From positions 55 through 64,054 of the forward strand of contig JAUWCU010000003.1 in NCBI GenBank assembly GCA_030609135.1: a stretch of DNA of 64,000 bases, written 5' to 3'. The notes below the pieces were generated by a model. That model ran no database searches and was not told the DNA's origin. It was given only the letters and a program-made list of their open reading frames with translations. Position 1 is the stretch's first letter. Each line of letters begins with the position of its first letter. Below, piece after piece: positions 41,679-42,578 of this stretch. Position numbers and translations under genes: made by a program. This DNA comes from Candidatus Stahliibacteriota bacterium. GTDB lineage: Bacteria > Hydrothermota > Tepidihabitantia > SM23-42.

Positions 41679-42578
41679 ATGCTGGCAACTAATCTTACCG
41701 TTCATATAGATTCTTCCTACATCCCTTGGCGAGTTCAAGCTGGAGAAGAACCACAGTATTTGTGGCGCTGGGCAATGGCATACGGTGAGTCATACTGGCG
41801 GAATTTTTATGCCTGCACCACCAAGGTGCAATGCCTGCGGAATTATGCAGACACAACTTATGACGACACCTATTTTGATGGTGTCTTTGTTGACAATTTG
41901 CTCCACTTCGTTGATGGTTTGAGTTATGGTTACAACATTTATCCTGCACAATATCGTCCTTATCCGGATACCAATAACTTTGCACAATGGGATGCAAACT
42001 TACGTGCGGCAGTAGATACTTTTGTGCAAACAGTAAGCGCTGAATACCATAACCCTAACACACCTTCTGGTCATCCTTGCGAGGTTTTAGCAATAGGCAA
42101 TACAAACCGGGCACATTTGGTGGATGAATATGCTACTTTATGGAAAAATTTTCTGCAATATCTGGATGGCGCAGTGGAAGAATCTGATTTTGCGCGTGCT
42201 GATATAGAATTTGGTCGCTGGCAGAGAATGATTCATGAAATGGCGATTGCCGAATCATTGGGCAAGATATGCCTCATTCATGTGCCCTGTTCCACAGAAT
42301 TTTATAGTCCTAATGACCCTTTGAGTGTCTACTATTATGACTCAACTCAGATGATTTATGGTTTTGCAAGTTACTTGATGGCTTACGATTCTGTGAGTCA
42401 TTTCGCTTTAAATAAGAATCTTTCTCCCAATTATGCCCATATCTACTGGGCACCGATTTTTTCAATTTGTTCAATTTCTGAATTGGTGAATAGGCGGTTT
42501 CGGAATAGATATTTCGGCTTAAATGTTTCTGGAGATTTTCCCATAAAACAATTATACATATTTTTTGCGAGAACTTAA
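41679..42578 (+). pseudogene. Truncated paralogue (central ~260 aa only) of the 934-aa secreted protein at 45127..47931
   Basis: Aligns by eye to residues ~170-430 of the long protein. It lacks the signal peptide and the whole C-terminal ~500 aa. The tail (..SICSISELVNRRFRNRYFGLNVSG..) has no counterpart. No promoter or SD was recognised. Confidence 0.55.

Follow-up and report, generated by a model that had tools for sequence, protein, structure and literature searches.

Interlocus gene conversion between bacterial paralogs is a well-described process, and the tufA/tufB pair is one case. In humans, CYP21A1P/CYP21A2 is the paradigm for conversion from a pseudogene to a gene that carries damaging changes along with it. 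Clusters of tandem paralogs in bacteria also undergo interlocus conversion, for example the tandem lipoprotein cluster of Staphylococcus aureus (PMC2568036). Segmental conversion from silent cassettes is described for Neisseria pilS/pilE, Borrelia vls, Anaplasma msp2, and Treponema tprK (PMC4534519).

Here we describe a further example of interlocus conversion. It lies in a 64-kb window, by which we mean the whole stretch of DNA that was analyzed. Two old paralogs of a GHL15/GH168-like gene for a secreted glycoside hydrolase in this window share an island of identical nucleotides, which we read with good confidence as a short interlocus (ectopic) gene-conversion tract. As in the known bacterial cases, the patch of identity is short, the paralogs are neighbors in direct orientation, synonymous sites are homogenized, and the patch ends in conserved blocks. 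Mosaic identity at a related locus (L018/L019) is a further point of likeness. The island departs from the usual case in that its partners are only ∼50–55% identical in DNA outside the patch and in that one of them is a remnant truncated on two sides. The setting differs as well: The host is an uncultured bacterium of the WOR-3/Stahlbacteria group, and the family has ∼17 members.

The locus also resembles silent-cassette systems, since a promoterless, truncated copy without a ribosome-binding site (RBS) is close to a longer one with signals for expression. The shared segment is short, conserved blocks surround variable codons, and the protein is secreted. Unlike those systems, however, this locus has a single fragment, a single tract, and a recipient that looks degraded, and the poly-G tract near the remnant is not a G4 motif. 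We know of no specialized initiator at this locus. The likeness to CYP21A1P/CYP21A2 is that both island copies share Ala in place of Asp, a change carried with the tract.

A 102-nt island in diverged flanks

The two copies of the island have the same orientation, are 3,883 bp apart, and flank a gene with SBBP repeats (Table 1). Both are on the forward strand of the same contig, and they agree letter for letter over 102 nt. A previous sequence-only reading had given the perfect match as 101 nt (41763–41863 and 45646–45746); the perfect identity stands, and the length increases by one base at the left edge. The peptide it had given for the island is confirmed, as is its observation that the match continues for ∼22 nt with three mismatches, all three of which fall at synonymous third positions. 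A repeat finder reports the pair as 147 nt with 92.5% identity. When the island was searched across the 64-kb window, the two copies and no further ones were recovered. The sequence of the downstream copy comes from one contig only.

Table 1. Features of the paralog locus, in window coordinates
Feature	Position	Strand	Remarks
Remnant of GHL15/GH168-like gene	41619..42467	+	Family residues ∼119–395; tblastn
In-frame TAA	41628..41630	+	Within residual homology, 16 codons before the ATG (41679)
Short ORF (P0016), 299 aa	41679..42578	+	Annotated; open frame 41631–42578
Island copy 1	41762..41863	+	In gene remnant; encodes WRWAMAYGESYWRNFYACTTKVQCLRNYADTTYD; exact match to copy 2
Nonhomologous 3' tail of short ORF, to its TAA	42468..42578	+	Presumed deletion junction
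Poly-G tract	42579..42587	+	G9 here, G11 in L020
Sigma-70 promoter	42659–42687	+	12/12 consensus match (promoter scan), upstream of SBBP gene
Gene with DUF7948, SBBP beta-propeller repeats, and weak T9SS sorting domain	42759..45069	+	Pfam
Long paralog (P0001), 934 aa	45127..47931	+	Signal peptide and ribosome-binding site
Island copy 2	45645..45746	+	In long paralog, residues 173–207; exact match to copy 1

The short ORF aligns with residues 137–395 of the long ORF. In a protein-guided codon alignment of 249 codons, the DNA identity of 10-codon windows is 100% in the island and ranges from 23% to 77% elsewhere, and so the identity of the two loci is not uniformly high once they are aligned. 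The flanks in this alignment are ∼50–55% identical in DNA and 38–44% identical in protein, in keeping with the earlier description of ∼230 flanking codons as homologous yet diverged. Homology of the two loci continues on both sides of the tract. The island is collinear and in frame with every homolog, and it can be aligned codon for codon without an insertion.

To place these values in the context of the family, 78 pairs from a codon alignment of 13 family members were compared for exact runs. The 102-nt run is the longest among the 78 pairs, and other pairs at ∼60–65% identity have exact runs of only 20–47 nt. In the 13-member alignment, the island is the most conserved stretch of the family. 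The DNA of the 11 other homologs is just 59–78% identical to the island, and purifying selection at the protein level is therefore excluded as the cause of the perfect match. If the probability of a match is calculated as the product of the per-site pairwise identities in the family, then 102 of 102 identical sites are expected with P ∼1e-21 given site-specific conservation. Given identical amino acids, all codons would match with a probability of ∼3e-10. Family members that share an amino acid use the same codon for it in 51% of cases, and synonymous sites vary freely in the 11 other homologs.

Between the two window copies, synonymous sites are identical in the island and saturated in the flanks. 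Together with the collinearity of the tract, this pattern bears out the main proposal of the sequence-only reading, which was a recent conversion tract. With the island removed, the short copy has 38% protein identity to the long copy and 37–48% to homologs from other genomes. Thus, the two copies are 100% identical in the tract, where homologs reach 59–78%, whereas outside the tract their mutual identity does not exceed that with sequences from other genomes.

The fragment locus was found again in an independent contig, L020 (2,872 nt, JGI metagenome 3300040951), which was reached via P0018, the second member of the 90% cluster of the short protein. This contig comes from a different sample and assembly and is 99.9% identical to window positions 41148–44017. 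It carries the same island (615–716), the same flanks, and the same nonhomologous tail, and it differs from the window by one SNP in 2.9 kb (42070 G>T). The frameshift in the SBBP gene is also the same, as is the 338-aa first ORF that results. The recovery of the fragment in L020, island included, shows that this locus is not misassembled, and the chimeric assembly that had been offered as an alternative is disfavored. Furthermore, two direct repeats in a linear contig (A-R-B-R-C) allow one ordering only, and a swap of flanks is therefore impossible.

The poly-G tract differs in length between the window and L020 (Table 1) and may be a hypervariable tract that changes by slipped-strand events. 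It is the sole G or C homopolymer of at least 7 nt in the 64 kb; the expected number is 0.02. The tract is positioned directly after the stop codon of the remnant and 72 nt upstream of the sigma-70 consensus promoter.

The protein family and the three genes of the locus

The family to which both paralogs belong is small, with ∼17 protein clusters in 5.8 billion. All of its named sources are metagenome-assembled genomes (MAGs) of candidate division WOR-3 or Candidatus Stahlbacteria. One contig is labeled SMTZ1, which is taken to denote a sample from a sulfate–methane transition zone. The loci of relatives were also gathered from genome and metagenome collections. Exact database look-ups of both window ORFs and of P0001 gave no match, and no ortholog of the short copy was found in the databases.

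Pfam searches with both window copies likewise gave no match even at E ≤ 10. Homologs P0002 and P0004–P0006 match the GHL15 model (PF14885) with E values from 3e-6 to 2e-14 (27.6–54.7 bits; cut-off 27). When the family profile was compared with the PDB, matches were obtained to 9nhf (E = 4.9e-5) and 9jom (E = 3.4e-4), which are GH168 fucanase-type retaining (beta/alpha)8 hydrolases (PMC12210190). The similarity to solved GH168 structures covers part of the domain only, and the WOR-3 family differs from GHL15/GH168 in its long C-terminal extensions. A weak profile alignment to 9nhf, for which a numbering offset of +3 is assumed, places the motifs DGvfxD and mEE on Asp167 and Glu237, the catalytic residues of MeGH168. 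The counterparts of these residues in the long copy, by the same weak alignment, are D217 (FDGVLID) and E299 (GGMEE). Both of the predicted catalytic residues are located outside the island and are intact in the two copies. An AlphaFold2 model of residues 1–500 of the long gene, made with 17 sequences, has a mean pLDDT of 52.9, and values in the island region are below 50.

The features of the upstream copy identify it as a promoterless, RBS-less remnant that is cut at both ends. When six family proteins were compared with the remnant by tblastn, identities of 43–48% (E from 1e-62 to 1e-78) were obtained in one frame, from 41619 or 41631 to 42467. Homology is present for 16 codons upstream of the annotated ATG, where FDSLYKGLLPDSHNSF-MLAT corresponds to FDSLLKQNYPSDTFF-MLAT in the family, and no Shine–Dalgarno motif was found before this ATG at 41679. 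The residues at the in-frame TAA are SFI*FDSLY, compared with GFxHFDSL in the family, and in the alignment with L003 the homology reaches ∼3 codons past the TAA, to 41619. The short copy had previously been described as lacking the signal peptide and the C-terminal part and as ending in unrelated sequence followed by G9. This description agrees with the absence of the N-terminal ∼119–136 residues and of everything after residue ∼395, and with the 110 nt without homology that precede the G9 tract. The tail gave no blastn or tblastx match in any related family locus. In total, the remnant covers almost all of the Pfam GHL15 region, as judged from the position of this region in homologs, and no family fragments beyond this one were found in the 64-kb window.

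The remnant is open for 316 codons, and its indels relative to the family all consist of whole codons. Outside the island, it keeps 39 of the 45 family-invariant residues, compared with 43 of 45 for the long copy and 93–100% for other homologs. The lack of stops, the whole-codon indels, and the retained invariant residues indicate that the remnant spent most of its history as a coding sequence and that it was truncated recently in comparison with its divergence. In the relative Kmv43, a gene at the same place upstream of the SBBP gene (L009) has 37% amino acid identity to the short copy outside the island and does not stand out as a close relative of it.

The long gene has a GGAGG sequence 7 nt before its ATG, and the SBBP gene also has GGAGG. 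Relative to the ∼1660-aa orthologs P0007–P0009, the long gene stops ∼730 residues early and thus lacks the C-terminal NHL propeller and T9SS sorting domain, and no trace of this missing part was found in the window. At one position, both copies have Ala (ATG GCA; 45661–45666 and 41778–41783), whereas Asp is found in 15 of 15 other family members (WAMDYG). Since this position is inside the island, the Asp-to-Ala change would have traveled with the tract. According to the GH168 alignment, the position corresponds to neither of the two predicted catalytic carboxylates. A strong hairpin is predicted at 47979–48023 (z = −4.25), in the region after the stop codon of the long gene (47932–48053).

The gene between the copies contains six to seven tandem units of 204 nt. 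A +1 frameshift is located near 43667, where an extra A (GAAT versus GAT in the other units) splits the gene into two ORFs, and tblastn with an intact 838-aa ortholog places the change of frame at 43672–43688. Because the same split is present in L020, the frameshift is a real mutation rather than an assembly error. Taken together, all three genes at this locus appear degraded in this population. The sequence-only reading had paired a decaying fragment with a functional gene. Decay of the fragment is upheld, but the word functional is doubtful for a partner that is C-terminally truncated and has lost an invariant Asp.

Several other sequence features of the window were observed. A 51-nt exact match between window positions 42750–42800 and positions 188–238 of the related contig L001 spans the RBS and start of the SBBP gene, which is ∼81% identical overall; it probably reflects a conserved translation start and signal peptide. 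A REP-like family of hairpin-forming repeats (GATAAATCCCGC...GCGGGATAAATC) occupies intergenic sites at 2553–2653, 8372–8430, 29639–29699, 32243–32294, and 36734–36796, and the copy at 8365–8435 folds with z = −6.8. Longer intergenic repeats with 94–97% identity also are scattered in the window (34214–34333, 36952–37071, and 36387–36475).

Patchy exchange in related lineages

Three sets of related loci have a bearing on the history of this one. In the Kmv43 MAG, the last genes of one contig (L009) are a 585-aa GHL15 gene and an SBBP gene of which only the start is present. Another contig, which holds L002 and L008, opens with the tail of an SBBP gene and then has a GHL15 gene. These contigs suggest that the ancestral arrangement was GHL15-SBBP-GHL15.

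Contig L001 begins with an N-terminal GHL15 fragment (1–162) upstream of its SBBP gene. This fragment has 97.5% identity to a full gene located 5 kb downstream across a tract of at least 122 nt that meets the contig end, and identity drops abruptly past the tract. This tract could be a recent partial duplication instead of a conversion. A second N-terminal fragment of 61 aa (2770–2955) is present after the SBBP gene. In a comparison of the full gene (4910–7978) with the long gene of the window, DNA identity is ∼81% in the 3' half and much less in the 5' half, which suggests that the full gene is a hybrid generated by recombination between paralogs.

In L018, a 3.9-kb tandem duplication (7437–15117) includes a PQQ-repeat gene and a GHL15 gene, and the upstream GHL15 copy carries a truncation and a frameshift. 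A comparison of the two copies gives a mosaic in which exact blocks of 474, 387, 345, and 223 nt are interspersed with blocks of 66–85% identity. The same mosaic is present in L019, which was assembled from a different sample and is 99.98% identical, with one difference in 5.4 kb. The converted positions vary between lineages. On the evidence of these loci, patchy exchange between neighboring copies, truncated ones included, appears to be typical of the family.

Origin of the island

The history that best explains this locus is as follows. The paralogs diverged long ago, and the upstream copy was later cut down at both ends. A patch of 102 nt was in all likelihood copied from one copy to the other, recently enough that no differences have accumulated since. 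The copying may have occurred by nonreciprocal homologous recombination or by template switching during repair or replication. Flanks that are this diverged are poor substrates for RecA-type recombination, which counts against the conversion reading. Exchange might have been anchored in the blocks of the family that are most conserved at the nucleotide level, which are TGGCGCTGGGCAATGGA at the left and TAYGAYGAYAC-TATTTTGAYGG at the right. Pairs of unconverted paralogs have exact matches of 22–26 nt at alignment columns 207–216, which correspond to the left edge of the island, and the right end of the tract is within the conserved block that encodes YDDTYFDG. These conserved edge blocks are the only places where diverged paralogs share exact stretches of ∼20–26 nt, and recombination becomes efficient at about this length.

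As to the direction of transfer, two weak lines of evidence point opposite ways. In a regression of island identity on flank identity (residual sd 5.6), the mean residual is +6.4 for the short copy and +3.6 for the long copy. The island is therefore slightly too conserved for the divergence of the short copy, which slightly favors transfer from the long copy to the short copy. In contrast, loss of invariant residues is about threefold more frequent in the short copy than in the long copy. The short copy is therefore the likelier origin of the Asp-to-Ala change, and this slightly favors transfer from short to long.

Could the remnant instead serve as a programmed donor cassette, a silent upstream copy that feeds segments into an expressed gene for a secreted or surface protein as in pilS/pilE, vls, msp2, and tprK? 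We consider this improbable, although several observations fit. The remnant has neither a promoter-proximal start nor an RBS, yet it is free of stops and frameshifts over its 316 codons and retains most invariant residues. Truncated upstream copies with patches of identity are found in three lineages, the tract ends in conserved blocks that flank more variable codons, and the proteins are secreted, with a signal peptide here and a T9SS sorting domain in relatives. Known cassette systems have the same traits (PMC4534519). However, the 64 kb contain one fragment, one island, and no donor library, and the conversion patches of relatives are at differing positions. Variation between samples is minimal, with the single SNP in 2.9 kb between the window and L020 and one difference in 5.4 kb between L018 and L019. 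Signs of decay are also present: The putative expression gene has a truncation and lacks an invariant Asp, and the SBBP gene carries a frameshift. In addition, immune pressure would not be obvious for what is presumably a free-living organism of sediments or hot springs. If this improbable reading were true, bacteria of the WOR-3/Stahlbacteria group would keep truncated upstream copies as reservoirs, and conversion anchored in conserved blocks would shuffle segments for substrate binding into an expressed hydrolase. A phylum that is uncultured and free-living would then possess cassette-type diversification of an extracellular enzyme, and the poly-G tract next to the remnant, whose length varies, might belong to its control.

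An artifact of assembly or error correction, in which the popping of de Bruijn bubbles or the correction of reads homogenized similar paralogs, is very improbable. The window does come from a metagenome-derived contig, and contigs of related MAGs break inside these paralogs. Nevertheless, an independent assembly from a different sample has an identical fragment island with the same flanks, frameshift, and tail, and the larger mosaic of L018 is seen again in L019. The linear order of the repeats precludes a swap of flanks, and homogenization would need near-identical copies beforehand, which itself would be a sign of conversion. Selection on the nucleotides themselves, through an embedded regulatory RNA, a binding site, or a recoding signal present in both copies, would explain why identity extends to synonymous sites, but it has very little to recommend it. 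No Rfam family was found in the island region, the predicted fold of the island is no better than that of shuffled sequence (z = −0.54), and synonymous sites are free in the 11 other homologs. Neither a structure supported by covariation nor a nucleotide motif kept by the family was seen in the segment. Hardly credible at all is a recent duplication with fast-diverging flanks, or a mobile element of 102 nt present in both genes, even though the copies are neighbors in direct orientation. A recent duplication was rejected, since outside the island the copies are no closer mutually than to other genomes, and it is not credible that flanks fell to ∼50% DNA identity while 102 nt remained unchanged. 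Insertion of a mobile element was rejected as well, because the island can be aligned with all homologs codon for codon and without an insertion. A diversity-generating retroelement also was rejected: The repeats have no mismatches, adenine-specific or otherwise, and both reside in homologous coding sequence with homologous flanks.

Gene conversion remains our preferred explanation, and we take the exchange to be a by-product of tandem paralogy, at a locus in decay in this population, rather than the work of a dedicated mechanism. The island opens neither a new mechanism nor a long-standing question. It does provide a clean and statistically unambiguous instance of short-tract conversion between very diverged paralogs from an uncultured WOR-3 bacterium, and to our knowledge nothing has been known about recombination in this phylum. 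Because this small family is mosaic, single-gene trees and orthology calls made over the length of its genes will mislead. Our findings also indicate that gene remnants in such genomes can still trade sequence with longer copies, and that this exchange can carry changes at otherwise invariant residues, such as the replacement of Asp by Ala seen here.
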